Below, piece after piece: positions 19,687 through 62,658 of a stretch of 64,000 bases of DNA. The position numbers and the translations under genes are program-made. Position 1 is the first letter of the stretch. The number at the start of each line of letters is the position of its first letter. Below the pieces are notes generated by a model. That model saw only the letters and a list, made by a program, of their open reading frames with translations, was not told the origin of the DNA and did not search any database. The DNA comes from Bacteroidales bacterium. Lineage in GTDB: Bacteria; Bacteroidota; Bacteroidia; Bacteroidales; UBA1402. Location: assembly GCA_017446025.1 (NCBI GenBank), contig JAFSRR010000104.1, forward strand, positions 44,026-108,025, in the 5' to 3' direction.

Positions 19687-19762
<76 letters not shown>

Positions 19763-19812
19763 AGCCGCGGAAGCGTCCGCAAAGAGGCTATCTTCTCAAT
19801 GTCAGAATGAAT

Positions 19813-19896
19813 ACCCAGGTGGTGGAATTGGTAGACACGCTACTTTGAGGGGGTAGTGGACATTAGTCCGTGTGAGTTCGAGTCTCATCCTGGGTA
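19813..19896 (+). tRNA. tRNA-Leu (anticodon GAG), class II with a long variable arm
   Basis: The acceptor stem is acccagg/cctgggt (A1:U72), the anticodon stem is ctact/ggtag with loop ttGAGgg, and the T arm is gtgag-ttcgagt-ctcat (one G-U pair). There is no encoded CCA. Confidence 0.8.
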
Positions 19897-19917
19897 CTTT
19901 CTCACATTTGACAGTAT

Positions 19918-20001
19918 GCCTAGATGGTGAAATTGGTAGACACGCTAGTTTCAGGTACTAGTGGCCGCAAGGCTGTGCAGGTTCGAGTCCTGTTCTGGGC
20001 A
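19918..20001 (+). tRNA. tRNA-Leu (anticodon CAG), class II
   Basis: The acceptor stem is gcctaga/tctgggc (one G-U pair), the anticodon stem is ctagt/actag with loop ttCAGgt, and the T arm is gcagg-ttcgagt-cctgt. Confidence 0.85.
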
Positions 20002-20009
20002 CTGAAAAA

Positions 20010-20042
20010 AGAGGATCGTTTATATAACGACCCTCTTTTTTT
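20010..20042. terminator. Bidirectional rho-independent terminator between the tRNA cluster and the convergent lipoprotein gene
   Basis: An 11-bp stem agaggatcgtt/aacgaccctct (one mismatch) is flanked by an A6 run upstream and a T7 run downstream. Confidence 0.65.
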
Positions 20043-20100
20043 ATACCACTTCTCCACCCTTTTCTCCCGCTCCAAACAGTTTTTTGTGCGAATGGTTGTT

Positions 20101-20754
20101 TTACATGCGTGCAATGGATACGCTGCCAATGTTGCCGCGGAGTTGCATGATGAGAGCATCAACTTTATTGCCGTTCTTATTGACTTCCATGATAAGAAAA
20201 CCGAAGGCGTTCCAACTGGATTCTGCGTCATCTATCGCCCGGTAATTGATGGGAGTTTCTGCATTGTTGAAGGAGCAGGTGTAGTCATCTTCTTCCGTCC
20301 TGTTGCCGTTAATCTCTACATCCCAATCCCGATGACCATCGGCCGATGGATCGACAGCGGTAGCTGTCAGATTGAAGTGTGTGTCGAATCTGTTTCCATT
20401 GAAACTAAACTTTCCATCGAATTCTATCGTCCAGGCTTGCTTTCCCGAAACCTTTGTGATGGTAGCCCCAGAGAGTGCACCGTCACGAAGCACCTTCCAC
20501 ATACTGCCATCTGCCGACAGCGAGGTCCCGTTTGACTGATAGAAGTACTTTGCCATCGTGCTCTCCTTGTCCATTTTCAGGGCCGATTCCAACTCTTCGA
20601 GAGTAGCTGTGACGATATCATTGGAGATGCAAAGCATATATTCCTTTAGTGGCGTACTTACATAGGTGGGCGAAAAATGTTCCGTTCCGTCGTATCTCTG
20701 GCACGATGTCATGGATGCAACGACAAGAGTTATAACAAATATGATTCTTTTCAT
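20101..20754 (-). CDS. Lipoprotein of unknown function (low-GC islet)
   Basis: 217 aa. The lipobox is VVASMTSC. I recognise no family. GC is about 42% in a sampled 60-nt line, against about 60% in core genes. Confidence 0.65.
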   Translation of the reverse strand: MKRIIFVITLVVASMTSCQRYDGTEHFSPTYVSTPLKEYMLCISNDIVTATLEELESALKMDKESTMAKYFYQSNGTSLSADGSMWKVLRDGALSGATITKVSGKQAWTIEFDGKFSFNGNRFDTHFNLTATAVDPSADGHRDWDVEINGNRTEEDDYTCSFNNAETPINYRAIDDAESSWNAFGFLIMEVNKNGNKVDALIMQLRGNIGSVSIARM

Positions 20755-43609: not shown

Positions 43610-44635
43610 TCAGTCTTTCTCAACGTATTTTACAGCCAGGGGATCCCAATCGCCGAAGACATTCTTCAACGTGTATTCCTTGGCCTGCTTGTCGGTGAGC
43701 TGATGGCTCCAGGCAACACGTCCCTTGGTGTCGGCACCGGGACCGTAGTTCTTGTATTCGCTGTAACGGGCCGTCCGCTCCTTGTCTCTGTTTCCCCAGT
43801 TGTTCCAGCCGGCCGGCACGATGAAATCACCCAGCTCGCAGTACATGAACAAGGTCATGCCGTAGGCGCGCCAGGGCCTGCCCAGGTGCATCTTGGTCAC
43901 GTCCTCGTTGGCCGTTACCTTGCAGTGGCTCAGGATGTAGCCGTATTTGATATTTTCGGGCGTCGAGGCGGCCGTGATGAAGGAATTGCGTTTGCAATGC
44001 AGGTGGCAGGCTTCAAACCAGGCGGTCGAGGGACCGAAGATGTAGTCGGTGGTGCCTTCGATGTAGCAGTTGTCGAAATAGATACGGGCGGCTTCACGAC
44101 CGGTGTAGATGGTGTCCTGGTTGCCGATGATGCGGCAGTTGAAGAAGCAGACACGGTCGCCTTCCACATGCAGGGCCACGGCCTGTCCCAGCTGGGGAGC
44201 GGCATTCTCGATGGTCAGGTTCTGGTAGGTGATGTCATTGCCCTGCACCAGCACCGTATAGGTGCGGAAGGTGCCCATCTTGTTGATGTTGGCGTGGTCA
44301 TCCCACATGATGACGGTATTCTCCAGGTCTTCGCCGATGAACACCACATTGGTGATCCAGGTGGGAATGATCAGCTTCTCCTTGTAGATGCCTTTCTTGA
44401 TAAACACGGTGGTCCGCTCTCCGGGACGGAAGGCCTGGATGCTCTCGACGGCATCCTGGATGTTGCGGAAATCGCCCGTGCCGTCGCGTGCAACGACAAT
44501 GGTGTACTTCTTTTCTTGTACCGGAGCCTGACCCTGGTTCTGAGGCGGGAAAGGTCTGGCATTCTGCCCTTGGTTTTGGGCACATACGGCGGTCATCATC
44601 ATCAGAGCGCCGATGAGGATCATGACTTTTTTCAT
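43610..44635 (-). CDS. Pectinesterase (carbohydrate esterase family 8), secreted
   Basis: 341 aa from ATG 44635. The signal peptide is MKKVMILIGALMMMTAVCAQ. The CE8 motifs are GNQDTIY, GTTDYIFG and LGRPWRAYG. Confidence 0.9.
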   Translation of the reverse strand: MKKVMILIGALMMMTAVCAQNQGQNARPFPPQNQGQAPVQEKKYTIVVARDGTGDFRNIQDAVESIQAFRPGERTTVFIKKGIYKEKLIIPTWITNVVFIGEDLENTVIMWDDHANINKMGTFRTYTVLVQGNDITYQNLTIENAAPQLGQAVALHVEGDRVCFFNCRIIGNQDTIYTGREAARIYFDNCYIEGTTDYIFGPSTAWFEACHLHCKRNSFITAASTPENIKYGYILSHCKVTANEDVTKMHLGRPWRAYGMTLFMYCELGDFIVPAGWNNWGNRDKERTARYSEYKNYGPGADTKGRVAWSHQLTDKQAKEYTLKNVFGDWDPLAVKYVEKD

Positions 44636-44640
44636 AACGA

Positions 44641-46821
44641 TTATCTGATAAATAAAAGTTCTCTGTATTTGGGCAGGGGCCAAAGCTCGTTGTCGACCAT
44701 CAGCTCCAGCTTGTCTATCTTGTTGCGGATCTTGGAGAAATACGGCTCGACCGTGTCGTGGTAGGCAATGGCCTTTTCGCGTTCGGCAGTGATTTTATTG
44801 GCCACCTTGCGTGCCTCGACCATGGCATCGGTAAAGGTCTGTATGTCGTCCATATAGCTTTCTATCTTCTTGATTTTGTCGGACTTGACTACCGACAAGG
44901 CTCGATAGTCCTCCTCGCTGTAAAGCGTTTTGAGCTTGTAGAGGTTGTCGAGCAGGGCCGACTGGTAGCGGGTGGCCACCGGGATGATGTGGTTCAGGGC
45001 CAGGTCGCCCAGCACCCGGGCCTCGATCTGGATCTTCTTGGTGTAAGTCTCCCACTTGACTTCGTTGCGGGCATGCAGCTCCTTTTCGTTGAGCACGCCT
45101 GTCTGCTTGAATAGTTCGATGGAAGAAGGCCGCAGGTAGGCATCGTATTGGAGCGGGATGCTGTTTTCGCAGTCCAGGCCGCGGGCGGCAGCCTCCTGTT
45201 TCCATTCGTCGCTGTAGCCGTTGCCGTCGAAGCAGATGGGCTTGGCGATGCTGATGTATTCCCGAAGGATGGAATAGACCGCCTTGATCTTGTCCTCACC
45301 CCCTTCGACACGTTTCCTCAAAGCGGCGTTGAAGTCGCTCAGCTGGCCGGCCACGGCGGTATTGAGCACGATCATCGAGCAGGCACAGTTGGCCGACGAT
45401 CCGACGGCACGGAACTCAAAACGGTTGCCTGTGAAGGCAAAGGGCGAGGTGCGGTTGCGGTCGGTGTTGTCGACCATCAGTTCGGGAATCATGCCTATGT
45501 TGAGGTTCAGCCGGGCCTTGTCGCCCAGCTTGATCTCGTCGGAAGATTCTATTTCTTTGAGGATGCGGGTCAACTGGTTGCCCAGGAAGACTGAGATGAT
45601 GGCCGGCGGAGCCTCGTTGGCCCCCAGGCGGTAGGCGTTGCCGGCACTGCCCACCGAGGCCTTGAGCAAAGCGTTGTGCCGATAGACCGCCATCAGCGTG
45701 TTGACCAGGAAGGCTACGAACACCAGGTTGTCGTGCGGCGTCTTGCCCGGCGAGAACAAGTTGATGCCCGTATCGGTCGAAAGCGACCAGTTGCAATGCT
45801 TGCCGCTGCCGTTGATGCCGGCGAAGGGCTTTTCGTGCAACAGCACCCGGAAATGGTGCTTGGGCGCCACTTTGCGCATCAAGTCCATCAGAATGAGGTT
45901 GTGATCGACCGCCAGGTTGGTTTCTTCGTAGATGGGTGCGAACTCAAACTGGTTGGGGGCCACCTCGTTGTGGCGGGTCTTAAGGGGCACGCCCAGCCGA
46001 TAGGCCTCGATTTCCAGATCTTTCATGAATTCCACCACCCGCTTGGGAATGGAACCGAAATAATGGTCTTCCAGTTGCTGGTTCTTGGCCGATTCGTGCC
46101 CCATGATGGTACGTCCGCACATCATCAGGTCGGGACGTGAGGAAAACAGGGCTTCGTCGACCAGGAAATACTCCTGTTCCCAGCCCAGGTTAGAAATCAC
46201 TTTGCCGGCGGGCACATCCAAAAGGGCGCAGGTGTCGAGGGCGGCTGTCGTGACGGCCGAAAGAGCCCTGAGCAGCGGCGTTTTGTAGTCGAGCGCTTCG
46301 CCTGTATAGGAAATGAATATGGTGGGGATACACAACGTATCATCGACGATGAAGGCCGGCGAGGACGGATCCCAGGCACTGTAGCCGCGGGCCTCGAAGG
46401 TGTTGCGGATACCGCCGTTGGGGAAACTCGATGCGTCGGGCTCCTGCTGCACGAGCAGCTTGCCGTTGAACTTCTCTATCACATGGCCGGGATCGGCATG
46501 CTGGATGAAGGCGTCGTGCTTTTCGGCCGTACCGTCGTTGAGCGGATGAAACCAATGGGTATAATGCGTGGCACCCCTTCTCATGGCCCACCTTTTCATG
46601 GCGCGGGCCACCTGCTCGGCAATATCGGGACTGATGGAGCCGCCCTGCTCGACCGACTGGCAGAGTTTGCGGTAGACGCCCCTTGTGAGGTAGCGCCGCA
46701 TAGTCGACATGTTGAAAACGTTTTCCCCATAGTAGTCAGATACTTTGCGTCCGACTTTCTGGGCGGGTACTACCTGGTGGTCGAAGGCTTCTTTTACCAG
46801 ATGGAATCTCAGGTTTGCCAT
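44641..46821 (-). CDS. glnN: Type III glutamine synthetase
   Basis: 726 aa from ATG 46821. The sequence starts MANLRFHLVKEAFD and continues with THYTHWFHPLNDGTAEKHDAF, NGSGKHCNWS and NRTSPFAFTGNRFEFRAVGSS. Confidence 0.92.
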   Translation of the reverse strand: MANLRFHLVKEAFDHQVVPAQKVGRKVSDYYGENVFNMSTMRRYLTRGVYRKLCQSVEQGGSISPDIAEQVARAMKRWAMRRGATHYTHWFHPLNDGTAEKHDAFIQHADPGHVIEKFNGKLLVQQEPDASSFPNGGIRNTFEARGYSAWDPSSPAFIVDDTLCIPTIFISYTGEALDYKTPLLRALSAVTTAALDTCALLDVPAGKVISNLGWEQEYFLVDEALFSSRPDLMMCGRTIMGHESAKNQQLEDHYFGSIPKRVVEFMKDLEIEAYRLGVPLKTRHNEVAPNQFEFAPIYEETNLAVDHNLILMDLMRKVAPKHHFRVLLHEKPFAGINGSGKHCNWSLSTDTGINLFSPGKTPHDNLVFVAFLVNTLMAVYRHNALLKASVGSAGNAYRLGANEAPPAIISVFLGNQLTRILKEIESSDEIKLGDKARLNLNIGMIPELMVDNTDRNRTSPFAFTGNRFEFRAVGSSANCACSMIVLNTAVAGQLSDFNAALRKRVEGGEDKIKAVYSILREYISIAKPICFDGNGYSDEWKQEAAARGLDCENSIPLQYDAYLRPSSIELFKQTGVLNEKELHARNEVKWETYTKKIQIEARVLGDLALNHIIPVATRYQSALLDNLYKLKTLYSEEDYRALSVVKSDKIKKIESYMDDIQTFTDAMVEARKVANKITAEREKAIAYHDTVEPYFSKIRNKIDKLELMVDNELWPLPKYRELLFIR

Positions 46822-46856: not shown

Positions 46857-46937
46857 ATCATTTGGCGGCAAAAGCCGCAATACTTCCCCGGCTTTATTTT
46901 CAAAAAAACCGACGCGGAAATATTTCTGCAGATTTAA

Positions 46938-46969
46938 TTTGCAACAAGTCTCAAATAAATCTATATTTG
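46938..46969 (+). promoter_or_regulatory. Bacteroidota-type promoter of the uxaE-like/SDR/larA-like (and possibly pdxB-gnd) gene string
   Basis: TTTG (46938-46941), N20, then TATATTTG (46962-46969). This implies a leader of about 75 nt before ATG 47049. Confidence 0.55.
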
Positions 46970-47048
46970 TAGGCTCATATGTGCGCATAAGGGAGAACAT
47001 ATTATCAATCAACATACAATTATCAACGAACTAATTTGATTTAAAGCT

Positions 47049-48302
47049 ATGAGAATCAGCAAGTATTCCTTCGGTACCGGTGACCGTTTCGCCCATCAGG
47101 GTGAAGCCCAGCTGAGTGCACTGATCAAGGCCCGCAAAGAACTGGGCATCGATTTCACCCCTGTGTGGAACAAATCGAACCGCGAACACAACATTGTCCA
47201 TTCCGAACCGATTGACACCCGCCGGGAAGCTGACGCCGCTGTCAAGGCCCTGGGATATACCGGCCCCTACTTTGTCGATGCCGACCACATCAACATGAAC
47301 AATGTCGACCGTTTCATCGACTGCTCCGATTTCTTCACCATCGACGTGGCCGACTATATCGGCAAGGCTGCTCCCGCCGACGACATCGACGCTTTTGTCA
47401 AGCGCAATGCCAAGTATGTGGGCAAGCTGACCATCCCCGGCATCGCCGAGCCTTTCGACATCACCGAGAAACTGCTGCGCGAAAACGCTGAGAAATTCCT
47501 CTTCGCCGCCCAGGAAGCCGGTCGCATCTACCGTCATATCGCCGAAGTGAAGGGTGCCGACAATTTCGTGCCTGAGGTTTCCATGGACGAAGTCGACGAA
47601 GCCCAGACCCCGATCGAAATGTTCCTGATCCTGAGCGCACTGGCTGGCGAAAAAGTGCCTGCCCAGACCATCGCTCCCAAGTTCACCGGCCGTTTCAACA
47701 AGGGTGTCGACTATGTCGGCAACGTGGCCCAGTTCACCAAGGAATTCGAACAGGACCTGCTGGTGATCGATTTCGCCGTCAAGGAATTCGGCCTGCCCGA
47801 CAACCTCAAGCTCAGCATACACTCCGGCAGTGACAAGTTCACCATCTATCCCATCATGGGCGACCTCATCCGCAAGTATGACAAGGGTATCCACGTCAAG
47901 ACCGCCGGCACTTCCTGGCTGGAAGAACTGATCGGTCTGGCCATGGCCGACGACGCCCAGGCCCTGAAGATGGCCAAGGCTGTATATAAAGGTGCCTACG
48001 GCCGCTTCGACGAGCTCTGCGCCCCCTACGCCACCGTCATCGATATCGACCGCAGCAAGCTGCCGACTATCGAGGAAGTGGAATCCTGGAGCGGCAAGAA
48101 ATTTGCCGACACGCTGCGTCATATCCCCGGCAACAAGGATTACAACCCCAACTTCCGTCAGTTGATCCATGTAGGTTACAAAGTGGCTGCCGAACTGGGC
48201 AAGGACTACACCGACGCCCTCAGCCGCAACAAGGCTGTATGCGCCGAACAGGTCATCAGCAACATCTACGAGCGTCACATCCTGAGAATGTTCAAAAAAT
48301 AA
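47049..48302 (+). CDS. Tagaturonate/fructuronate epimerase-like protein (UxaE family), tentative
   Basis: 417 aa. The N-terminus MRISKYSFGTGDRFAHQGEAQL, then WNKSNREH and VDADHI, resemble what I remember of UxaE-family proteins. Not verified by search. Confidence 0.45.
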   Translation: MRISKYSFGTGDRFAHQGEAQLSALIKARKELGIDFTPVWNKSNREHNIVHSEPIDTRREADAAVKALGYTGPYFVDADHINMNNVDRFIDCSDFFTIDVADYIGKAAPADDIDAFVKRNAKYVGKLTIPGIAEPFDITEKLLRENAEKFLFAAQEAGRIYRHIAEVKGADNFVPEVSMDEVDEAQTPIEMFLILSALAGEKVPAQTIAPKFTGRFNKGVDYVGNVAQFTKEFEQDLLVIDFAVKEFGLPDNLKLSIHSGSDKFTIYPIMGDLIRKYDKGIHVKTAGTSWLEELIGLAMADDAQALKMAKAVYKGAYGRFDELCAPYATVIDIDRSKLPTIEEVESWSGKKFADTLRHIPGNKDYNPNFRQLIHVGYKVAAELGKDYTDALSRNKAVCAEQVISNIYERHILRMFKK

Positions 48303-48326
48303 ATACTAACCCAAAACTACAAGATT

Positions 48327-49175
48327 ATGAACAAATATTCATTTGAAGACCTGAAAGGTAAAGTATGCGTCATGACCGGCGGTGCCGGTGTCATCGGTGC
48401 CACCCTGGCTCGCGGTCTGGCTTCGGCCGGCGTGAAGACTGCCATTGTCGATATCAACGAAGAAGCCGCCACCAAACTGGCTGCCGAAATCCAGAAGGAA
48501 TACGGTGTCAAGACCATCGGCGTAGTGGCCAATGTACTTGAGAAGGAATCCCTGGAAGCTGCCAAGGCCAAAGTCAACAAGGAACTGGGCAAGATCGAGA
48601 TCCTGATCAACGGTGCCGGCGGCAACTCTCCGAAGGCCACCACGGGTGTCGAACAGATGGTCGAAGAAGACAAGAAGAATCTGGATGCCACTTTCTACGG
48701 TCTGTCGATGGACGGTTTCCAGAGAGTCTATGACCTCAACTTCAAGGGCACGCTGCTGCCCACCATGGTTTTCACCGGCGATATGCTGGAAGCCGGCAAG
48801 GGTGCCATCATGAACATCTCATCGATGAACTCCTACCGTCCTCTGACCAAGATTCCCGCCTACTCCGCCGCCAAGGCTTCCATCAACAACCTGACCGAAT
48901 GGCTGGCCGTACACTTTGCCAAGATCGGCATCCGCGTCAACGCCATCGCTCCCGGTTTCTTCCTGACCAACCAGAACCGCTTCCTGTTGATGAAAGAAGA
49001 CGGCACGCCTACGCCTCGTACTGAGAAGATCCTGAACAACACCCCGATGGGCAAGTTCGGTGAACCCGAAGACCTGATCGGTGCCACCCTGTACCTGCTG
49101 AGCGACATCTCTTCGTTCGTCACGGGTATCGTCATCCCCGTCGACGGTGGTTTCAGCGCCTACAGCGGTGTCTAG
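48327..49175 (+). CDS. SDR-family oxidoreductase, UxuB-like (fructuronate / D-mannonate oxidoreductase type)
   Basis: 282 aa. It has TGGAGVIG, NGAGGN with a long insertion after it, and a catalytic YSAAK. The substrate is inferred from the neighbouring genes. Confidence 0.55.
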   Translation: MNKYSFEDLKGKVCVMTGGAGVIGATLARGLASAGVKTAIVDINEEAATKLAAEIQKEYGVKTIGVVANVLEKESLEAAKAKVNKELGKIEILINGAGGNSPKATTGVEQMVEEDKKNLDATFYGLSMDGFQRVYDLNFKGTLLPTMVFTGDMLEAGKGAIMNISSMNSYRPLTKIPAYSAAKASINNLTEWLAVHFAKIGIRVNAIAPGFFLTNQNRFLLMKEDGTPTPRTEKILNNTPMGKFGEPEDLIGATLYLLSDISSFVTGIVIPVDGGFSAYSGV

Positions 49176-49200
49176 TCGTTCATTCTAATCATTTGTTGCA

Positions 49201-50481
49201 ATGTTATATTACAGCAGAGGTTCCAAAACCGACAATATCACTCCCGATGAGGTTCGAGCCATATTGAAGGAGGTTTTCGACAAAATGGGTAAGAAAAATC
49301 GGGTGTTGGCTTTGCCCCCCGATTTTACCCGTTTCAATTCCTATGCCGGACCGATCACCGAAATGGTCTATGACTATTACGGCGACACGCTGACGGATGT
49401 CATGCCGGCCTTGGGCACCCATTCCCCGATGACCGAAGAACAGATCCGCACCATGTTCGGCCACGTGCCCATGGACAAGTTCCGTGTGCACGACTGGCGC
49501 AACGACGTGGTGACGGTGGGCGAAGTCCCGGCAGAATATGTCAACAAGATATCGGAAGGCCGTTTGAACTATTCCTGGCCCGCCCAGGTCAACAAACTGC
49601 TGCTCGATCCCTCTTTCGACCTGATCCTGTCTATCGGCCAGGTGGTGCCGCACGAGGTCATCGGCATGGCCAACTACACCAAGAACCTGTTTGTCGGTGT
49701 AGGCGGCAGCGAAGGCATCAACAAGAGTCATTTCATCGGTGCCACCTATGGCATGGAACGCATCATGGGCCGGGCCAAATCACCCGTGCGTGACGTGATG
49801 GAATATGCCAAGCAGCACTTTATCAGCCAATTGCCAATCGTATTCATTCAGACCGTTTTGGCCAAGAATTATGAGACGGGCAAGATGGAGCTCAAGGGCA
49901 TCTTCATCGGCGACGATTTCGAATGCTTCCAGAAAGCAGCCGATTTGTCGCTGGAGACCAACTTCATCATGGTGGACCACGAGATCAAGAAATGTCTGGT
50001 CTATCTCGATCCCGAAGAGTTCAAGAGCACCTGGCTGGGCAACAAGAGCATCTACCGCACCCGTATGGCCTTGGCCGACGGTGCCGAGCTCGTCGTGCTG
50101 GCCCCTGCCCTGAAGGAATTCGGCGAAGACAAGACCATCGACGGCCTGATCCGCAAATACGGCTACAAAGGCACGCCCCACACACTCAAGTGCACCAACG
50201 AGAACCAGGACCTGCAGGACAATCTGGGCGCTTCGGCCCACCTCATCCACGGTTCTTCCGAAGGCCGCTTCACGATTACCTATTGCCCCGGCCCGGACAT
50301 GAGCCGCGAGGAAATCGAAAGTGTCGGCTTCAACTACGGTGACCTGGATGCTGTGATGGCCCACTACGATGTGGCCCATTTGAAAGACGGATGGAACACC
50401 ATGCCCGACGGCGAGGAAATCTATTACATTTCCAATCCCGCACTGGGTTTGTGGGCCTATCCCGACCGTTTCAAAGACTAA
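49201..50481 (+). CDS. LarA-like (DUF2088) nickel-pincer-dependent 2-hydroxyacid racemase/epimerase family protein
   Basis: 426 aa. An eye alignment to LarA places GQVVPHEVIGMANYTKNLFVGVGG against SHFFAGFSGGRKSVLPG, with the His and Lys retained. NKSHFIG aligns with the second catalytic His region. Confidence 0.5.
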   Translation: MLYYSRGSKTDNITPDEVRAILKEVFDKMGKKNRVLALPPDFTRFNSYAGPITEMVYDYYGDTLTDVMPALGTHSPMTEEQIRTMFGHVPMDKFRVHDWRNDVVTVGEVPAEYVNKISEGRLNYSWPAQVNKLLLDPSFDLILSIGQVVPHEVIGMANYTKNLFVGVGGSEGINKSHFIGATYGMERIMGRAKSPVRDVMEYAKQHFISQLPIVFIQTVLAKNYETGKMELKGIFIGDDFECFQKAADLSLETNFIMVDHEIKKCLVYLDPEEFKSTWLGNKSIYRTRMALADGAELVVLAPALKEFGEDKTIDGLIRKYGYKGTPHTLKCTNENQDLQDNLGASAHLIHGSSEGRFTITYCPGPDMSREEIESVGFNYGDLDAVMAHYDVAHLKDGWNTMPDGEEIYYISNPALGLWAYPDRFKD

Positions 50482-50484
50482 AAG

Positions 50485-51615
50485 ATGAAGATCGTCTGCG
50501 ACAATAAGATTCCCTTCCTCAGAGGAACGCTGGAGCCCTACGCCGAGGTGGTTTACCTGCCCGGTGCCCAGACTACGGCGGAGGTCGTTCGCGACGCCGA
50601 TGCCATCATCACCCGCACCCGTACCATCTGCAACGAGCAGTTGCTCAAGGGTTCGAAGGTAAAGGTGATTGCCACGGCCACCATCGGTTACGACCATATC
50701 GACACGCATTGGTGTGAACAAAACGGCATCGTCTGGAAAAACTCCCCGGGTTGCAACTCCTGGTCGGTCAAGCAGTATATCGCCTCTGTGCTGGTCTGTC
50801 TGGCCCAGCGGCACGGCTTCCGTTTCCAGGATATGACCCTGGGCGTCGTGGGGGTGGGCAATGTCGGCGGCAAAGTCGCCGAAGTCGCTTCGCTCATGGG
50901 CTTCAAAGTCCTGCTCAACGACCCGCCACGTGCCCGCAAAGAAGGCAGCCGGGGTTTTGTATCGCTCGATACCCTGCTCTCCAAGAGCGATATCGTGACG
51001 GTACATGTGCCCCTGACGGCCGAAGGCGAGGATGCCACCTGGCACTTGTTCGACAAAGAACGCCTTTCCCGGCTTCGTTCTGACCAGATCCTGATCAACA
51101 GCTCCCGGGGCGAGGTGGTCGACAACCAGGCGCTCAAGGCGGTGTTGAAGGCCGGTGGCATGAAGGCAGCCGTACTGGATGTCTGGGAGGGCGAGCCCGC
51201 CCTGGATGCGGAATTGGTCGGTCTGTTGGACATCACCACCCCGCACATCGCCGGCTATTCGGCCGACGGCAAGGCCAACGGCACGACCATGAGTGTCCGC
51301 ACCGTGGCTCAGTACCTGGGCTTGCCCCTGACCGACTGGACGGCTTCGGGTGTGCCTGCTCCCGCCCAGTCGTTGGAGTTCTCGATCGATGCCAAAGGCA
51401 AAACAGACCAGGAGGTCATTTCGCAGGCCATCCTCTACACCTACGATGTCCGCACCGACAGCGATTTGTTGCGCGGTTGTCTGGAAGGTTTCGAGCAGCA
51501 GCGGGGCGATTATCCCGTGCGTCGGGAATTCACCGCCTTCACACTTCATCTCTCCCATGCCGGTGCCGATTTGGCGGCACGTCTGGCAAAAATAGGATTC
51601 AAAATCATTCAATAA
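50485..51615 (+). CDS. pdxB: 4-phosphoerythronate dehydrogenase
   Basis: 376 aa. It aligns by eye along its whole length with E. coli PdxB, including GVVGVGNVGG, LNDPPRA, INSSRGEVVD, LDVWEGEP and PHIAGYS, plus the PdxB-specific C-terminal dimerisation domain. Confidence 0.85.
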   Translation: MKIVCDNKIPFLRGTLEPYAEVVYLPGAQTTAEVVRDADAIITRTRTICNEQLLKGSKVKVIATATIGYDHIDTHWCEQNGIVWKNSPGCNSWSVKQYIASVLVCLAQRHGFRFQDMTLGVVGVGNVGGKVAEVASLMGFKVLLNDPPRARKEGSRGFVSLDTLLSKSDIVTVHVPLTAEGEDATWHLFDKERLSRLRSDQILINSSRGEVVDNQALKAVLKAGGMKAAVLDVWEGEPALDAELVGLLDITTPHIAGYSADGKANGTTMSVRTVAQYLGLPLTDWTASGVPAPAQSLEFSIDAKGKTDQEVISQAILYTYDVRTDSDLLRGCLEGFEQQRGDYPVRREFTAFTLHLSHAGADLAARLAKIGFKIIQ

Positions 51616-51633
51616 CTATCTAAACATTTAATT

Positions 51634-53091
51634 ATGAAAGCAGTATCTGATATTGGACTGGTCGGTTTGGCCGTCATGGGTGAAAACCTGGTCCTGAACA
51701 TGGAGAGCAAAGGTTTCCATGTCAGCGTGTTCAACCGTACCGTCGAAAAAGTTGACAGATTCATCAATGGTCGCGGCGCCGGCAAGAATTTCTACGGAGC
51801 CCATTCTCTCGAAGAGCTGGTGGCTTCCCTGAAATCCCCGCGTCGCGTGTTCCTGATGGTCAAGGCCGGTCAGGCAGTCGATGATTTCATCGAAAAGCTT
51901 ATCCCCCTGCTCGATCCGGGCGACATCATCATCGACGGCGGCAACTCCCATTTCCCCGACACCGCACGTCGTACGGCCTATGTCGAAAGCAAAGGCCTGC
52001 TCTACATCGGTACCGGTGTTTCGGGCGGTGAAGAAGGTGCGCTGAAAGGCCCGTCCATGATGCCTGGCGGATCTCCCGCCGCATGGCCCTATGTCAAGCC
52101 CATTTTCCAGTCCATCTGCGCCAAGGTCGAAGATGGTTCGCCTTGCTGCGACTGGGTAGGTGAAAACGGTGCCGGCCACTTTGTCAAGATGGTCCACAAC
52201 GGCATCGAATACGGTGACATCCAGCTTATCTGCGAATGCTACCAGATCATGAAGGACATCCTGGGCATGACCAACGAGGAAATGCACCAGACCTTCGCCG
52301 AATGGAACAAGGGCGACCTGGACAGCTATCTGGTCGAAATCACCCGTGATATCCTGGCCAAGAAGGACGAGGACGGCAAGTATGTCCTCGACTACATTCT
52401 CGACACCGCCGGTCAGAAAGGTACCGGCAAATGGACTGCAATCGCTTCCCTGGATCAGGGTGTTCCCTTGACGCTGATCGGTGAGAGCGTATTCGCCCGT
52501 TGCCTGTCGGCCCAGAAGGAAGAGCGCGTCGCTGCCAGCAAGGTGCTGGTCGGCCCCAAGCCTCAGAAGTTCACCGGCGACAAGAAGGCCTTCCTGGAAG
52601 ACCTGCGCAAGGCTTTGTTCTCGGCTAAGGTGGTTTCCTACGCCCAGGGCTACACCCTGATGCGTGCCGCTGCCAAGGAATACAACTGGAACCTGAACTA
52701 CGGCGGCATCGCCCTGATGTGGCGTGGCGGCTGTATCATCCGTTCGGTCTTCCTGGGCAAGATCAAGGAAGCCTTCGACAAGAAGCCCGATCTGGCCAAC
52801 CTGCTGCTCGATTCCTATTTCCAGAGCAAGCTGGCCGATGCCCAGCAGAGCTGGCGTAATGTCATCGCCTGCGCTGTCATGAACGGCGTTCCGGCTCCCT
52901 GCCTCTCGGCTGCCCTTGAGTATTACGACGGCTACCGCAGCGAACGCCTGCCCGCCAACCTGCTGCAGGCCCAGCGCGATTACTTCGGCGCCCACACCTA
53001 CGAACGTACCGACAAGCCCAGAGGTGAGTTCTTCCACACCAACTGGACAGGTCATGGCGGCGACACGGTTGCCGGCACCTACATTGCCTAA
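51634..53091 (+). CDS. gnd: 6-phosphogluconate dehydrogenase (decarboxylating)
   Basis: 485 aa. It contains IGLVGLAVMGENLVLN, GGNSHF, GTGVSGGEEGA, HFVKMVHNGIEYGD and QRDYFGAHTYER. Confidence 0.95.
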   Translation: MKAVSDIGLVGLAVMGENLVLNMESKGFHVSVFNRTVEKVDRFINGRGAGKNFYGAHSLEELVASLKSPRRVFLMVKAGQAVDDFIEKLIPLLDPGDIIIDGGNSHFPDTARRTAYVESKGLLYIGTGVSGGEEGALKGPSMMPGGSPAAWPYVKPIFQSICAKVEDGSPCCDWVGENGAGHFVKMVHNGIEYGDIQLICECYQIMKDILGMTNEEMHQTFAEWNKGDLDSYLVEITRDILAKKDEDGKYVLDYILDTAGQKGTGKWTAIASLDQGVPLTLIGESVFARCLSAQKEERVAASKVLVGPKPQKFTGDKKAFLEDLRKALFSAKVVSYAQGYTLMRAAAKEYNWNLNYGGIALMWRGGCIIRSVFLGKIKEAFDKKPDLANLLLDSYFQSKLADAQQSWRNVIACAVMNGVPAPCLSAALEYYDGYRSERLPANLLQAQRDYFGAHTYERTDKPRGEFFHTNWTGHGGDTVAGTYIA

Positions 53092-53114
53092 AGCAAGTAT
53101 CTTCCTGATATATG

Positions 53115-53150
53115 ACGAGGACGGCCCATCGGACCGCCCTCGTTTCTTTT
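53115..53150 (+). terminator. Imperfect rho-independent terminator after gnd
   Basis: The hairpin acgaggacggcc/ggaccgccctcgt has two imperfections and is followed by ttcttttat. Confidence 0.45.
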
Positions 53151-53193: not shown

Positions 53194-55341
53194 TTATCTG
53201 ACAATGACTTTCTGCTGCACTGAGCGGCCATCGACCGTGAGCCGTACCAGATAGATACCCGGCTGGGCGGCCGAAGAAAGCGGCAGGCAGTAGCGGGCGC
53301 CGCCGGTGACCATCAGGCGACGGATCTGCTCAACCCGACGTCCCTGCATATCGTACAGTTCCAGACGGGCCAGGCCGTCACAGGGCACGGTAAAAGTCAA
53401 CTGTCCGTCGGACACAGCCAGGGACAAATGCGCTTCCCTGCCCAAAAAGACTTGCTCGGCTGCCGTGGGTGCCTGCTCATATTCGTAGGGACCCAGGTCA
53501 CGGGCGGCACCGCTCACAGGCTGCCAGGTAAAGGGGAAAGCCTCGTAGAGCGGACTGCGCAGATCCAGCCCTTTGTCTATCAAGACAGAATTGGCGCGAA
53601 GACGGGCGAAACGCGTCGGCAGGCTTCCGTCCACACCGCGGGGCGCTTTGGCATCCTCTTCCGACAGACTGATGTAGTCGGCCTCCGAGAAACCATTATT
53701 GATCACCTGGCGGGTCCAGGCGTTCTTGATGACGGTCAGTGCGTTGTGGGAATCGCTGAAGCGGCCTTTGATTTCAATCCGGCCCAGGCAGACATTGTTG
53801 TAGAACTCAAACTTGGTCGAATCCTCGCAATCTTCGAACATGAAATCGTAGCCGTTGCCGAATGCCAGGCAGTTGACCAGTTTGACGCCGTCCTTGTGGC
53901 TGTTTTCATCGAAGCCTTTCACCGAGCCGGTCTTGTTATTGTTGAAAGCCACGCAATTCCATGCCTCGTGCACACCCTTGGAAGAGCCGCCCGTACCGTT
54001 GCCGCCCAGTTTGATGCCATTGCCGTTGCCCTGGAAGGAGCCCGATGCTTCCACCCAGTCGAACAGACTGGCACGTCCCGAACCCCAGGCCCAGCATTCG
54101 ATCAACTGGACGCCGAAATCGGTCTCATACAGGTCCCAGGCATCGTCGCTGTTGTCCCAGGCCCGGCAGCGGATAAAGCGGTTGCCCAGGCCATTGTGCA
54201 TTTTGCAGGCAAAACCGTCGGCATCGCTGCCGAAGTTGTCGCTGTCGCAATTCAGGTAGGAATCGCAGTCGATGATGTCGTTGTAGGCGCAATAAGAACC
54301 GTCGTTGGCGCTGATGCCGGGGTGCGAGTCGCTGAACTTGTGTCCGAAGCCCAGTTGCAGTCCCGTGTCGTCGTTGTAGCTGAAAGTGCAGCGCTCGATG
54401 ATGTTGTGCGAGCCCTCCAGTTTGATGCCGTTGTCGCCGGCCCGGGTGATGTGCAGACCGTAGATATGCCAGTAGTCACCTGCGAGCAAAATGCCGCGGA
54501 TACTCTGTTTCTTGGGCTGATCCTTGAAATTGAGCACCGGAAACTCGCCGGGGAAGGTCTTGATGGTATAACGGGCTGCTGCCGTGCCGCTTTTGGTGAT
54601 CCTGACCGTGGTCTTGGATCCGTCGGCTTTCATTGTGGGATAATAGGTGCCGCCGCGCACGTAAATGGTATCGCCCGGCACAGCAGTATCGACAGCCTTC
54701 TGGAGATTATAGTAAGGATGTTCCCACGACCCGTCGCCGCTGTCGTTGCCCCAGGTGGCCACATACAGGCAGTGCTCCGTGCTGTGCGGGCCCTCCCAGA
54801 GGAGCGTATCCTGCGGCTCGGAATTGACGGGTTCTCCTTCACTTCCCTGTCCGCCGCTGACGGAGCCCAGGACGATTTGTATGTCGTCCAGGTAAATGGT
54901 ACCGTTCTGGCAGGTGAACCTGACATAGACAGCCGTGTCGTTTTCCTGCGATTGGAGACTGTAGGAAGCGCTGCCATAGGGAGTGGACGACGAGGCGATG
55001 GCCGTACCGACATCATTCCAGTTGATGCGGTCGGTGGATTTCTGGATCAGTAAGGGTTTGCCGCTACCCGACCCCCGGAACTTGAAACTGAGACTGCCGG
55101 GTTGGAAAAGGGCCGGTGTCTCGACATAGCTGCCCGTCGACATGGTGGCCCGCTGACTGTTGTTGTCCTTCTTGCCATAGACGCCCAAGATGCGCCACAC
55201 TCCGGAAGACAAGGTAACCTCTGTTTCAGTGTCAGGGGCCGAAGAAGGCAGTCCCTGTTCGAACCCTTCGGTCAGTGTCTCTGCTCGAGAAAGGAGCAAT
55301 CCACTGATAGTCAATACTATTATAACAATCGTTTTTCTCAT
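53194..55341 (-). CDS. T9SS-secreted right-handed beta-helix pectate-lyase-like enzyme (PL9/DUF1565 type) with an N-terminal beta-sandwich domain
   Basis: 715 aa from ATG 55341. The signal peptide is MRKTIVIIVLTISGLLLSRA. The entry motif is YVATWGNDSGDGSWEHPYYNLQKAVDTAVPGDTIYVRGGTY. Beta-helix rungs include GIKLEGSHNIIERCTFSYNDDTGLQL, DGFACK and NSDDAWDL. The T9SS C-terminal domain reads LELYDMQGRRVEQI and PGIYLVRLTVDGRSVQQKVIVR. Confidence 0.8.
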   Translation of the reverse strand: MRKTIVIIVLTISGLLLSRAETLTEGFEQGLPSSAPDTETEVTLSSGVWRILGVYGKKDNNSQRATMSTGSYVETPALFQPGSLSFKFRGSGSGKPLLIQKSTDRINWNDVGTAIASSSTPYGSASYSLQSQENDTAVYVRFTCQNGTIYLDDIQIVLGSVSGGQGSEGEPVNSEPQDTLLWEGPHSTEHCLYVATWGNDSGDGSWEHPYYNLQKAVDTAVPGDTIYVRGGTYYPTMKADGSKTTVRITKSGTAAARYTIKTFPGEFPVLNFKDQPKKQSIRGILLAGDYWHIYGLHITRAGDNGIKLEGSHNIIERCTFSYNDDTGLQLGFGHKFSDSHPGISANDGSYCAYNDIIDCDSYLNCDSDNFGSDADGFACKMHNGLGNRFIRCRAWDNSDDAWDLYETDFGVQLIECWAWGSGRASLFDWVEASGSFQGNGNGIKLGGNGTGGSSKGVHEAWNCVAFNNNKTGSVKGFDENSHKDGVKLVNCLAFGNGYDFMFEDCEDSTKFEFYNNVCLGRIEIKGRFSDSHNALTVIKNAWTRQVINNGFSEADYISLSEEDAKAPRGVDGSLPTRFARLRANSVLIDKGLDLRSPLYEAFPFTWQPVSGAARDLGPYEYEQAPTAAEQVFLGREAHLSLAVSDGQLTFTVPCDGLARLELYDMQGRRVEQIRRLMVTGGARYCLPLSSAAQPGIYLVRLTVDGRSVQQKVIVR

Positions 55342-55394
55342 CTTTGCAAAGGATTTGTCGGAGCAAAGAAAACGATTATTTCTGAGAAACACAC

Positions 55395-55430
55395 AAAAAA
55401 AAAGACGGTTCTCTTCGTGAGAATCGTCTC
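55395..55430 (-). terminator. Rho-independent terminator after cysK
   Basis: The minus strand has an 11-bp stem agacgattctc/gagaaccgtct (one A-C mismatch) with loop acga, followed by a T9 run (plus-strand A-run 55395-55403). Confidence 0.65.
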
Positions 55431-55450
55431 TTTTGCCACAGAATTGGATG

Positions 55451-56377
55451 TTATTCCGAAAACAGCGCTGTCGAGAGGTATCTCTCGCCCGTATCGGGCA
55501 GCAGTACAACGATGTTTTTGCCGGCGTTCTCAGGACGGCTGGCCAGCTCTGTGGCAGCCGACAAGGCTGCTCCCGAGGAAATACCCACCAGGATCCCTTC
55601 GCGCTTGGCCAGCAAACGGCTGGCCTCGAAGGCGGCCTCGTTTTCCACGGTCAGGATTTCGTCCACTACCTCGCGGTTGAAGGTGGCAGGGACAAAACCG
55701 GCACCGATGCCCTGGATCTTGTGCGGACCGGGGGCTCCTCCACTCAATACGGGCGAGGATGCCGGTTCGACAGCCACGATGCGTATGGCCGGATTCAGCT
55801 GTTTGAGGCGCTTGCCCACGCCGCTCACCGTGCCCCCGGTGCCTACGCCGGCTACAAAGATATCGACTTTGCCCTGGGTGGCATCCCAGATTTCCTGGCC
55901 GGTCGAAGCATAGTGTTTCTGGGGATTGGCCATGTTCTCGAACTGCTGCAGGATGATGCTGCCGGGAATGTTGTCGCGCAGTTCCTCAGCCTTGGCGATG
56001 GCTCCTTTCATGCCGGCAGCGCCGGGCGTGAGTTCCACCTGTGCCCCGTAGGCCTGCACCAGACGACGACGCTCGATGCTCATGGTCTCGGGCATGGTCA
56101 GAATCAGATGATAGCCTTTGACGGCCGACACCCAGGCCAGTCCCACACCAGTGTTGCCGCTGGTGGGTTCGATGATGGTGTCACCCGGTTTGAGCAGGCC
56201 ACGCTTTTCGGCATCTTCGATCATGGCAAGAGCGATGCGGTCTTTGACGCTGCCACCCGGATTAAAAAACTCCACCTTGGCAATCAAGGCATTGTCAAGT
56301 CCCTGTGCTTTCGAGAAGCGGGACAATTCGACCAGAGGGGTGTTCCCCACCAAGTCCGTGATGTTTTTCGCAATCAT
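55451..56377 (-). CDS. cysK: Cysteine synthase A (O-acetylserine sulfhydrylase)
   Basis: 308 aa. It contains NPGGSVKDR (the PLP lysine), [12 protein letters not shown] and GVGTGGT. Confidence 0.95.
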
Positions 56378-59176: not shown

Positions 59177-59252
<76 letters not shown>

Positions 59253-60836: not shown

Positions 60837-61619
60837 TTGAACGGCAGAGACATCATATTTGGACTGTACAAGGAAATCTTGCTTTTTGATGTATTTCGTT
60901 CGGTGTTTTTGATGTGCTTTATTCAATACTTCGACTACTACAACAACCCAACCAGTCCCATTATTGCCTATTACGCTCCCGCCTGGGCGACAGATGCCGA
61001 TATTGCCGCCTGGCGGGCCGACGACCCCTACGGACAGAAAGCCAACACCATTATTACGAAGACCACGCTGGAGAATGTCGGTATCGGGCCCTCCACTCAG
61101 GTGAACGCCACCTGGAAAGAGCGGCGTTCGATGGACCTGGGCGTTCCCTGTATCAAGAAGTTCGACGACTATACAGCTGCTTCCATCGCCAACCGTTCCT
61201 CGTCGTGTAGCACCCACGATGTAGTTCTTTCCCGTCTTGGCGAAGCATACCTGATTGCTGCAGAAGCATACCTTCAGTGCAACGACAGGCTCAAGGCCGC
61301 CGACATGATCAACAAACTGCGTCAGCGTCCGGGCACTGTCAAGACCGGATTCGAAGCTGCCATGAATGTGACTGCCGGCGATATCACCATCGACTTCATC
61401 CTGGACGAACGAGCCCGCGAAATGGCCGGTGAATATGTCCGTTATACTGATCTGAAACGTACCCACAAGCTGGTTGAATATGTAACAGCCTACAATGAGG
61501 ACGGCGTCACGGATGCACAGATGAAGGGCGACGACGGAAAGTACAAGATACTGCGTCCGATTCCACAGGATGCTCTCGACAAGAACCAAACCAAGGTCGC
61601 ACAGAATCCCGGCTATTGA
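60837..61619 (+). pseudogene. 5'-truncated SusD/RagB-family gene remnant (C-terminal ~230 aa only), with no adjacent susC
   Basis: The C-terminal half of the SusD family is recognisable: SRLGEAYLIAAEAYL, DFILDERAREMAGEYVRYTDLKRT and ILRPIPQDALDKNQTKVAQNPGY at the very end. Full-length members are about 500-600 aa. The apparent TTG start and first ~25 codons look non-homologous. Confidence 0.7.
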
Positions 61620-62515
61620 CAGCGAGATCCGAATGTGTCAGCCCCGGCCCTGAACTGCCAGGGCGACATTACTTTCCGGCGTGAGAAGAACTTGCTGAAC
61701 GAGGAGGCGTCGGCAAAGTTGAGTCGGTCGGCTATCTGGGCGATGCCCATCGACGTGGTGCGCAGCAGGAAGGAGGCTTCCATGAGCAGCATCTGGTTGA
61801 CATAGTCGACCACGGTGCGTCCCGACACCTGACGGACCACGCGCGAGAGATAGACGGGCGAGATATTGAGCCGGCCGGCATAGAAGGCGATGTTGCGGTG
61901 CCGGGCAAAGTGGGCGGGCAGCAGGCGGATGAAACCGATGAAGATATCTTCCACGCGCCTGGTCATCGGCCGTTGGACGATGACCCGCTGCTGGGCGTTC
62001 TGCACATCGAGCAGGAAGAGGGCGTAGAGCATGCGCAGGGTCTCCTGCCTGTAGAGATGGTCGGAGTGCAGGTAGGCGATGATCTCGCGCATCCGCGAGG
62101 CCAGGTGCAGGGCCGTGGCATGGGGCAGCGTGAGCTTCGGTTCGTGCAGCTGCACGACGGGCAGGCAGGCAATGCCCACCAGGTCGCGCACGGTGGGCAT
62201 GTCGATGGTCGTGTGCTCGTCGGCCAAAAGACAGATGGCGCGGTAGTTTTCCGAGGCCGAGACGATGGTGACCGAAAGCCCCGGCGAGTAGAAATAGAGA
62301 TCGTCGGCATTGAGTGTCAGGACTTTGCCGTTGTAGATAAATGTCAGCCAGCCTTGCGTGACCAGCGTGAAGGTGTAGGCCGAGAGGTAGCCTTGCGTCT
62401 CGTTCGAGCGGAAAGTCTTGGCCGCATCGGTCTCGATGCAGTACATCTTGCCGTCCCAGTTGTCCATCGGCATCGCGCCGAACATCGCATGCCAGCTTTC
62501 CTTGAGTGTGTACAT
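61613..62515 (-). CDS. AraC-family transcriptional regulator
   Basis: 300 aa from ATG 62515. An N-terminal ligand/dimerisation domain is followed by a C-terminal double HTH (IAFYAGRLNISPVYLSRVVRQVSG and IAQIADRLNFADASSFSKFFSR). It overlaps the end of the susD remnant by 7 nt. Confidence 0.88.
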   Translation of the reverse strand: MYTLKESWHAMFGAMPMDNWDGKMYCIETDAAKTFRSNETQGYLSAYTFTLVTQGWLTFIYNGKVLTLNADDLYFYSPGLSVTIVSASENYRAICLLADEHTTIDMPTVRDLVGIACLPVVQLHEPKLTLPHATALHLASRMREIIAYLHSDHLYRQETLRMLYALFLLDVQNAQQRVIVQRPMTRRVEDIFIGFIRLLPAHFARHRNIAFYAGRLNISPVYLSRVVRQVSGRTVVDYVNQMLLMEASFLLRTTSMGIAQIADRLNFADASSFSKFFSRRKVMSPWQFRAGADTFGSRCQ

Positions 62516-62557
62516 AGCACGAATCGGATCGGCAAAGATAAGAAAAGATGGCGGAAC

Positions 62558-62594
62558 TGTATCGTTCCGGACAAATATTGTATTGTTTCGGACA
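62558..62594. promoter_or_regulatory. Direct-repeat candidate operator (two 16-nt half sites phased 21 bp apart) between the AraC gene and the ferritin-like gene
   Basis: tgtatCgttCcggaca (62558-62573) and tgtatTgttTcggaca (62579-62594) match at 14 of 16 positions. The offset is exactly 21 bp. Confidence 0.45.
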
Positions 62595-62658
62595 GCGGCC
62601 GTGTCGGGCAACAAGGCTATCTTAGCGCCACATTATAATATATAAAAACAAAACGACT

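Follow-up and report, generated by a model that had tools for sequence, protein, structure and literature searches.

A five-gene Bacteroidales operon with a group-18 LarA homologue and Gnd as a candidate variant of a known hexuronate to 6-phosphogluconate shunt

The DNA analysed here is a 64,000-nucleotide stretch (the window) of contig JAFSRR010000104.1 from a metagenome-assembled genome labelled 'Bacteroidales bacterium' (assembly GCA_017446025.1). Between positions 47049 and 53091 it carries five co-oriented + strand genes that may encode most of a route from hexuronates to 6-phosphogluconate. The first is a uxaE-like gene (47049..48302, 417 aa), which is followed by a gene for a UxuB-like short-chain dehydrogenase/reductase (SDR) of the fructuronate reductase / D-mannonate oxidoreductase type (48327..49175, 282 aa). 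The third gene, larAH18 (49201..50481, 426 aa), encodes a LarA homologue of group 18, a putative hexonate 2-epimerase dependent on nickel and, as its cofactor, on nickel-pincer nucleotide (NPN). The last two genes are pdxB, of the 4-phosphoerythronate dehydrogenase family (50485..51615, 376 aa), and gnd, for a decarboxylating, NADP-dependent 6-phosphogluconate dehydrogenase (51634..53091, 485 aa). An earlier reading of the same DNA, hereafter the original prediction, had placed gaps of 24, 25, 3 and 18 nt between these genes, and the list of open reading frames (ORFs) gives identical values.

The original prediction also proposed one promoter ahead of this gene string and a terminator only after gnd, and both proposals agree with what was found. 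Promoters of Bacteroidetes follow the consensus -33 TTTG / -7 TAnnTTTG, which fits the sequence at 46938-46969. Here, a -33-like TTTG (46938..46941, +), identified by reading the sequence, is spaced by 20 nt from the -7 box TATATTTG (TAnnTTTG; 46962..46969, +), which lies 80 nt 5' of the first ATG. This is the single + strand copy of TAnnTTTG near the operon, and a + strand motif search found none inside the five genes. The window as a whole holds 28 copies versus 18.25 expected, many of them directly 5' of genes. When the operon starts of the window and of 9 close relatives were compared, 7 of the 10 had the motif 32-87 nt 5' of their first gene. A scan for generic sigma-70 promoters yielded 9 sites versus 4.3 +/- 2.1 expected, which alone is not significant. 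The operon leader gave no match to a riboswitch or other Rfam family. At the other end, a G+C-rich hairpin (GACGAGG..CCCUCGU; 53114-53144) followed by UUUCUUUU forms an intrinsic-terminator-like element after gnd (53114..53150, +), and the terminator scan detected no such site on the + strand within 47049-53091. The post-gnd hairpin was itself missed by the simple scanner because its stem is bulged, and the 74-nt stretch around it has a z-score of just -1.59.

Further features were observed near the start of the operon. The sequence ATGTGCGCA(T), with the palindrome TGCGCA, occurs at 46979-46988, after the -7 box but ahead of the first ATG, and recurs at 4591-4600 of locus L084, 5' of pfkB in a module of unrelated context. 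It could serve as an operator; the ATGTGCGCA 9-mer shows no overall enrichment across 1.45 Mb of loci. Just 5' of the operon promoter is a terminator-like hairpin, GCGGAAATATTTCTGC with a T-rich tail (46914-46929, +), and the gene on the upstream side of this hairpin is on the - strand.

The 417-aa protein had been called UxaE-like, and comparison with family models bears this out. It scores 178 bits on Pfam PF16257 (cut-off 27) and matches the UxaE structures 6IL9, 6ILA, 6ILB and 9LHW with E-values of 1e-21 to 2e-35, the best being obtained with a family profile. The catalytic residues of UxaE are Glu126 and Asp159 in the numbering of the C. laeviribosi enzyme (PMC11194214). These positions of Cohnella UxaE align to E46 (motif NREH) and D79 (motif DADH) of the window protein, and both residues are invariant across seven cluster-linked UxaE-like homologues. 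The protein departs from the full-length architecture, with its match beginning at position 79 of the 475 in the profile and at residue 93 of the 6IL9 chain, and, relative to the enzymes that have been characterised (about 480-507 aa), about 90 N-terminal residues are missing from it. No NCBIfam model matched it, and its gene is labelled 'hypothetical protein' in GenBank. The call of the adjacent SDR as UxuB-like likewise holds, as this protein scores 392 bits on NCBIfam NF006132 (D-mannonate oxidoreductase; cut-off 281) and falls well under the cut-offs of the models for gluconate 5-dehydrogenase and KduD.

The 426-aa protein, labelled 'DUF2088 domain-containing protein' in the source record, had been read as a LarA-like epimerase whose placement apart from lactate and malate racemases needed to be established. 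It does not group with these racemases: on NF052594, described as 'nickel-dependent putative hexonate epimerase', its score is 659 bits (cut-off 500), versus about 40 bits on models of malate racemase, and other LarA models yield at most 40.5 bits. Its Lar_N domain is recognized by Pfam PF09861 (32.9 bits, cut-off 23.3). The closest solved structure is PDB 4NAR, the D-gluconate 2-epimerase GntE2 of T. maritima, which the single sequence matches with an E-value of 2.7e-29, and the LarAH18 family profile matches 4NAR, 2YJG, 5HUQ and 6D6Z. Residues D41, R44, H74, H151, K161 and H177 align to D72, R75, H108, H174, K184 and H200 of LarA (L. plantarum numbering), and all six are invariant or at least 90% conserved among 20 family members that are 38-85% identical. 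In LarA, His108 and His174 serve in catalysis, Lys184 is the covalent attachment site of the NPN cofactor, and His200 is a nickel ligand. Homologues are abundant: all 8,000 scored candidates have E-values of 1e-20 or lower, with the best 120 at least 82% identical, and 350 matches at 1e-30 or lower were found among representatives clustered at 50% identity.

Group 18 was predicted to comprise hexonate epimerases in 2020 (Desguin et al., PMC7583248). The window protein is a member of this group (PMC7583248; NF052594) that retains all NPN-binding and catalytic residues and shows no difference at the family level. The group-18 examples examined from PMC7583248 are from Acidobacteria, not Bacteroidales. 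The LarA-type gluconate/mannonate epimerases that have been assayed belong to groups 19 and 20, along with Phytophthora LarAH15 (PMC7583248, PMC11770544), and epimerisation of D-mannonate to D-gluconate has been demonstrated for GntE1 and GntE2 (PMC7583248). Judging from these relationships in sequence, the 426-aa protein would convert D-mannonate to D-gluconate, or carry out the same conversion on the 6-phosphates.

Other group-18 proteins exhibit unusual features. The 823-aa protein P0143 joins a group-18 LarA to a C-terminal AGE-family domain that resembles cellobiose 2-epimerase / mannose isomerase and scores 366 bits on NF041848, under its cut-off; this protein would combine two different 2-epimerase-type chemistries. 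The termini of Phytophthora LarAH15, as derived from primers, resemble group 18, and no matching protein was found among 150 representatives; we treat this resemblance as a lead only.

The last two proteins of the operon are readily assigned. The 485-aa protein is a typical Gnd (770 bits on TIGR00873, cut-off 427). The 376-aa protein carries all three Pfam domains of PdxB (2-Hacid_dh, NAD-binding and the DUF3410 dimerisation domain), marginally passes the PdxB equivalog NF001309 (442 bits, cut-off 434), and shares 40-42% identity along its entire length with 5DT9 and 3OET, the PdxB structures of Vibrio and Salmonella. Moreover, among the 98 positions that are conserved within both canonical and cluster-linked PdxBs, 77 are identical between the two groups.

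To place the operon among its relatives, we compared the window with 80 loci from species-representative genomes (60-84% identity), giving 81 loci in all. All ORFs of these loci were clustered and the recurrent families annotated, and the window ORFs were also scored by codon usage. Among species representatives, the closest carry the labels Muribaculaceae and Candidatus Cryptobacteroides (84% identity each). Gnd is present downstream of the epimerase in 59 of the 81 loci and is on the epimerase strand in 98% of cases; the SDR occurs in 60, a PfkB kinase in 58, PdxB in 43, a UxaE-like protein in 37 and UxaC in 28. Of the 42 Bacteroidota loci that have at least 3.2 kb of downstream sequence, 40 encode Gnd on the same strand and no more than 4.5 kb away, and the association of epimerase and Gnd spans Bacteroidota, Ignavibacteria, Acidobacteriota, Planctomycetota, Spirochaetota and others. 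The layout seen most often is [mfs eda kdgK uxaC uxaE]< lacI SDR pfkB larAH18 (gfo) pdxB gnd, and further neighbours include KduI, GH28, DUF4861, and TRAP and MFS transporters. The epimerase is thus regularly found in hexuronate and pectin loci, where LarAH18 and Gnd form a conserved module. The window lineage, which also includes L010 and L012, has the order uxaE-SDR-larAH18-pdxB-gnd with no kinase, and in the Verrucomicrobia loci L039, L071 and L078 the PfkB kinase alone accompanies the epimerase.

The pdxB gene had been listed in the original prediction as an unexplained member of the string, and the comparison shows that its presence is not peculiar to this genome. It is a conserved part of the module in Bacteroidota and Ignavibacteria, where the epimerase (or gfo) gene precedes it and gnd follows it in 38 of 55 and 2 of 4 loci, respectively. 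It is also present in both metagenome-assembled genomes labelled Gammaproteobacteria, and was found in 0 of 15 loci from other phyla. The gap from epimerase to PdxB is less than 30 nt in many loci, and three close PdxB homologues (72-75% identity) all reside within pfkB-larAH18-pdxB-gnd, with differing flanking genes.

Several arrangements around the module were observed in addition. The core pfkB-larAH18-pdxB-gnd is embedded among differing neighbours (GH28/GH43, a two-component system or housekeeping genes) in L083-L088 and in most of L003-L082, and the uxaE-SDR pair is located either 5' or 3' of it. Because the flanking genes differ between loci, this suggests that the core moves as a unit. 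Among culturable relatives, Paludibacter, Mariniphaga and Draconibacterium have the complete module. An oxidoreductase of the Gfo/Idh/MocA family (about 348 aa), which falls under every NCBIfam equivalog cut-off, is encoded between larAH18 and pdxB in L015, L017, L020, L024, L025, L030, L037, L041-L044, L051, L062, L074 and L075; its hosts are Prolixibacteraceae, one Paludibacter locus (L051) and other Bacteroidota.

The synteny data also bear on the kinase that the window lacks. Linkage of the epimerase to the reductase, a kinase and Gnd holds across the family, although the kinase is missing in the window itself. Four proteins (P0126, P0127, P0134 and P0156; 588-612 aa) are fusions of an N-terminal gluconokinase of the GntK/IdnK type with LarAH18, in which the kinase exceeds the TIGR01313 cut-off in all four and the epimerase exceeds that of NF052594 in three. 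In Acidobacteriaceae, the clusters encode a gluconokinase of this type as a separate protein, and in most other loci a PfkB-family kinase is encoded directly 5' of the epimerase. These PfkBs (for example L003 8918-9994) constitute a clade of their own; they share about 65% identity with one another and only about 30% with the KdgK that is encoded beside eda at those loci. Their scores are 157-172 bits, versus 501 for the eda-adjacent KdgK, on that part of an NCBIfam model which represents KDG kinase (KDG, 2-keto-3-deoxygluconate). Thus, two non-homologous kinase families fill the role. The fusions, the Acidobacteriaceae gluconokinase and the adjacent PfkB are three independent observations that point to an aldonate kinase as a partner of the epimerase.

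Pectin is built mainly from galacturonate, and Bacteroidales rank among its major degraders in the gut and rumen. In the standard model, galacturonate is processed via KDG to pyruvate and glyceraldehyde 3-phosphate, which consumes reducing power. The identities of the genes, the layout of the operon, and the conservation of catalytic residues and of synteny described above are observations, and from them we infer the substrates and the direction of flux for a different route. UxaC, encoded outside the window, would convert galacturonate to tagaturonate, which the UxaE-like enzyme would epimerise to fructuronate and the SDR would reduce to D-mannonate. The group-18 LarA homologue with its NPN cofactor would then invert C2 to give D-gluconate, and a kinase encoded elsewhere in the genome (in most relatives, the PfkB directly 5' of the epimerase) would produce 6-phosphogluconate for decarboxylation by Gnd to ribulose 5-phosphate. 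From galacturonate to pentose phosphate, such a route would be redox-neutral, with NADH used and NADPH returned, and would therefore suit a fermenting gut anaerobe. A benefit of this kind has been argued for a redox-neutral route (PMC6978723).

The original prediction of a hexuronate to 6-phosphogluconate pathway is supported by the family calls, the match to 4NAR, the synteny with Gnd, and the gluconokinases that are fused or adjacent in other lineages. Four of the six enzymes of the shunt (UxaC, UxaE, fructuronate reductase, C2 epimerase, aldonate kinase and Gnd) are encoded in the window, and the two that are absent, UxaC and the kinase, are encoded in the clusters of many relatives. We consider it reasonably probable that the five genes form one transcription unit encoding most of this shunt. 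If so, the predicted fermentation balances and the yields of CO2 and NADPH would be altered, and the use of pectin through a nickel epimerase would become nickel-dependent.

Of the idea that this is a non-canonical route, the bypass of the usual steps is supported, and its newness is not, since the route was proposed earlier for Thermotoga. The feature is a variant of a known pathway, not a new pathway. T. maritima has a UxaR-regulated, pectin-induced operon, aldH-pelB-gnd-uxaR-uxaE-uxaD-gntE-gntK, for which this route was proposed (Rodionova et al. 2012, cited in PMC3750489). The two systems have in common the roles of UxaE epimerase, fructuronate reductase, LarA-family C2 epimerase and Gnd, and each is a single cluster adjoining pectinolytic genes. 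However, the Thermotoga epimerase, GntE2, whose activity has been demonstrated (PMC7583248), is LarAH20, whereas the window epimerase belongs to group 18. The Thermotoga reductase is the product of uxaD, a gene distinct from its uxuB (PMC3750489), whereas that of the window is an SDR. The window UxaE is about 90 residues shorter at its N-terminus, pdxB is inserted between the epimerase gene and gnd, and the system occurs in gut and rumen Bacteroidales. The Thermotoga operon includes gntK, whereas the window has no kinase gene and its relatives have kinases of the PfkB or GntK/IdnK type. Thermotoga GntK itself we take to be of a third kinase type (FGGY). What the present loci add to the known route is the conserved LarAH18-Gnd module, the presence of pdxB in Bacteroidota and Ignavibacteria, and the distinct PfkB clade, usually 5' of the epimerase. 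In the literature searched, no paper was found that combines lactate racemase, 6-phosphogluconate dehydrogenase, galacturonate and Bacteroid*.

Similarities are also evident with the canonical isomerase (Ashwell) pathway, UxaC-UxaB-UxaA / UxuB-UxuA-KdgK-KdgA. The UxaC and fructuronate reductase steps are shared, and kdgK-eda, sometimes with uxuA, adjoins the module in many relatives. In contrast to that pathway, the window has no altronate branch, mannonate dehydratase, KDG kinase or aldolase, and its carbon is predicted to exit as 6-phosphogluconate. Pfam scans of most predicted window ORFs revealed no uxuA, kdgA/eda or KDG kinase gene. A closer parallel is the hybrid isomerase-phosphoketolase pathway of L. 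suebicus, in which UxaC, UxaE and UxuB lead to mannonate, and then 6-phosphogluconate and Gnd follow, in a redox-neutral manner to ribulose 5-phosphate (PMC6978723).

Regarding pdxB, 4-phosphoerythronate is an adventitious product from erythrose 4-phosphate that inhibits 6-phosphogluconate dehydrogenase, and in B. subtilis, a mutant that fails to clear it is poisoned by carbon sources entering the pentose phosphate pathway (PMC6449344, PMC12445079). From this, we infer that PdxB, co-transcribed with gnd, may remove this inhibitor of Gnd and pass it to vitamin B6 synthesis, which would be the most economical role for the enzyme. Such a guarding function would give a reason for a vitamin B6 gene to travel with gnd. 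It would resemble the proofreading by yeast Pho13, mammalian PGP and B. subtilis CpgA that shields 6-phosphogluconate dehydrogenase from 4-phosphoerythronate (PMC6449344), in that the compound would be held at a low level where Gnd and the pentose phosphate pathway carry high flux. However, those enzymes hydrolyse the inhibitor as phosphatases, whereas here, as gene linkage suggests, a dehydrogenase of the B6 pathway would consume it. No pdxA, pdxJ or serC gene was found within the 64-kb window.

Other functions for these two proteins were evaluated and set aside. No feature was found in favour of a PdxB-like enzyme acting on 6-phosphogluconate; of the 98 shared conserved positions, 77 are identical to canonical PdxBs. 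A role for LarAH18 as a 4-phosphothreonate/4-phosphoerythronate epimerase serving PdxB was rejected, as the linkage to Gnd, the mannonate SDR and gluconokinase persists in phyla whose loci lack pdxB.

A separate observation concerns loci in which no PfkB kinase gene is found directly 5' of the epimerase gene. At this position, L049 (8797-9780), L054 (8967-9923), L058 (9056-9991) and L063 (9049-9939) encode a HAD-superfamily protein of about 300 aa with weak similarity to phosphoglycolate phosphatase (E about 1e-5). The broad HAD superfamily also includes the eukaryotic phosphatases of 4-phosphoerythronate.

Several points weigh against the shunt as drawn above. As the original prediction had recognized, uxaC, a sugar-acid kinase gene and larB/C/E are missing from the 64-kb window: none was detected in the Pfam scans, from which a few ORFs such as 20101-20754 (-) were left out, and family clustering with the related loci assigned no window ORF to the uxaC, kinase, uxuA, kdgA or larB/C/E families. 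Nor are larB/C/E among the annotated recurrent neighbour families within 10 kb at the 80 loci. A query with the epimerase-adjacent PfkB kinase of the closest relative returned only close homologues on other contigs. The literature examined yielded no assayed LarA homologue of group 18, and NCBIfam still names the family 'putative'. Characterised GntEs have a high Km for free D-mannonate of 9-120 mM (PMC7583248, PMC11770544), and the physiological substrate may therefore differ. Furthermore, uxuA, kdgK and eda are also found near the module in many relatives, and the shunt therefore coexists with the canonical route. The role proposed for PdxB comes entirely from gene linkage and from literature on other organisms. 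Finally, extracts of L. suebicus make 6-phosphomannonate from mannonate and ATP and interconvert it with 6-phosphogluconate (PMC6978723).

This last point leads to an alternative that we view as possible but rather doubtful, in which PfkB phosphorylates D-mannonate and LarAH18 acts as a 6-phosphomannonate/6-phosphogluconate 2-epimerase. In L. suebicus, the kinase precedes an epimerase that acts on phosphorylated intermediates, and both activities were reported without their genes (PMC6978723). Genes of the type seen in the window and its relatives would be candidates, and PfkB with LarAH18 would then supply the orphan mannonate kinase and 6-phosphomannonate epimerase. In accord with this idea, L. 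suebicus extracts lacking ATP yield no gluconate from mannonate, and a GntE homologue is abundant in the proteome of this organism (PMC6978723). No other paper in the literature searched names the two activities. Most loci are ordered SDR - PfkB - LarAH18 - (PdxB) - Gnd, the downstream PdxB and Gnd both use phosphorylated aldonates, and with free mannonate as substrate, GntE1, GntE2 and LarAH15 have Km values in the millimolar range (up to 120 mM; PMC7583248, PMC11770544). However, free mannonate is accepted by three characterised GntEs, and the sequence features examined reveal no phosphate-binding site. A milder objection is that the fused or neighbouring kinases elsewhere are of the GntK/IdnK family, whose known members take D-gluconate. 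Equally tentative is a broader proposal, that LarA-type 'gluconate epimerases' are really phospho-aldonate epimerases and that PdxB was recruited into the catabolic operon to guard Gnd against 4-phosphoerythronate. The slightly different signature residues of group 18 compared with groups 19 and 20 might instead mean that LarAH18 acts on D-altronate/D-allonate, L-gulonate/L-idonate, D-galactonate/D-talonate or an aldarate, with gnd linked for another reason. Another native substrate has been suspected for GntE1 (PMC7583248), and about 20 loci encode the Gfo/Idh/MocA oxidoreductase between epimerase and PdxB. We consider such a substrate unlikely. The epimerase is linked across six phyla to a D-mannonate oxidoreductase-type SDR, to a fused or adjacent gluconokinase and to Gnd, as predicted for the mannonate/gluconate pair, and the neighbourhoods hold no recurrent altronate or idonate genes.

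The five genes could also be two unrelated, co-oriented units, a hexuronate set uxaE-SDR-larAH and a housekeeping pair pdxB-gnd for vitamin B6 synthesis and the pentose phosphate pathway, with no catabolic coupling. The pdx genes of E. coli are well known to occur in operons with unrelated genes. The pdxB product scores as an ordinary PdxB, and the module is found without pdxB in Acidobacteria, Verrucomicrobia, Planctomycetes, Spirochaetes and some rumen Bacteroidales. However, gnd remains with the epimerase gene even where pdxB is absent, the gaps around pdxB are 3 and 18 nt with no internal promoter motif, the arrangement larAH18-pdxB-gnd is repeated across Bacteroidota orders and in Ignavibacteria, and pfkB-larAH18-pdxB-gnd occurs in unrelated flanking contexts. 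These arrangements make two independent units quite improbable. Even less credible is a route running in reverse, from gluconate to mannonate and on to UxuA/KdgK/Eda, by which the cluster would serve gluconate catabolism. LarA-type epimerases are freely reversible (PMC7583248), and uxuA is directly 5' of the epimerase gene in a few loci (L049, L054 and L057). However, neither the window nor most of the related loci carry uxuA, gnd is co-transcribed, gluconokinase fusions exist, and UxaE with fructuronate reductase point to mannonate as the input. The shunt from hexuronates to 6-phosphogluconate is thus the reading that we prefer.

With respect to the surroundings of the operon, the flanking pectin genes named in the original prediction are confirmed. 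A CE8 pectinesterase is encoded at 43610..44683 (-; Pfam PF01095, 237 bits) and a PL9-like pectate lyase with a Pel9A-like beta-helix at 53194..55509 (-), convergent with gnd; both lie outside the operon. The type IX secretion tail that had been attributed to the lyase is less secure, as its Por_Secre_tail match is weak (19.6 bits, cut-off 27). A type III glutamine synthetase gene is located between the pectinesterase gene and the operon, and the window content seen in the Pfam scans otherwise consists of housekeeping genes.

Elsewhere in the window, the long, well-scoring ORFs 15340-16668 (442 aa), 16685-18733 (682 aa) and 28593-32834 (1413 aa) have either no Pfam match or a sub-threshold one (DUF4957, 28 bits), and the former two are situated before a DUF4249 gene at 18746-19603. 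Three consecutive tRNA genes occupy 19687-20001 (+), and a fourth is at 59180-59252 (-). ORF 19924-20532, which overlaps the third of these and has no Pfam match, is probably spurious. The 260-aa ORF at 60837-61616 (+) aligns to no more than the C-terminal two thirds (positions 99-297) of the SusD/RagB profile and may represent a SusD-like gene that is truncated or mis-started; it is adjoined by an AraC-family regulator gene at 61616-62614.

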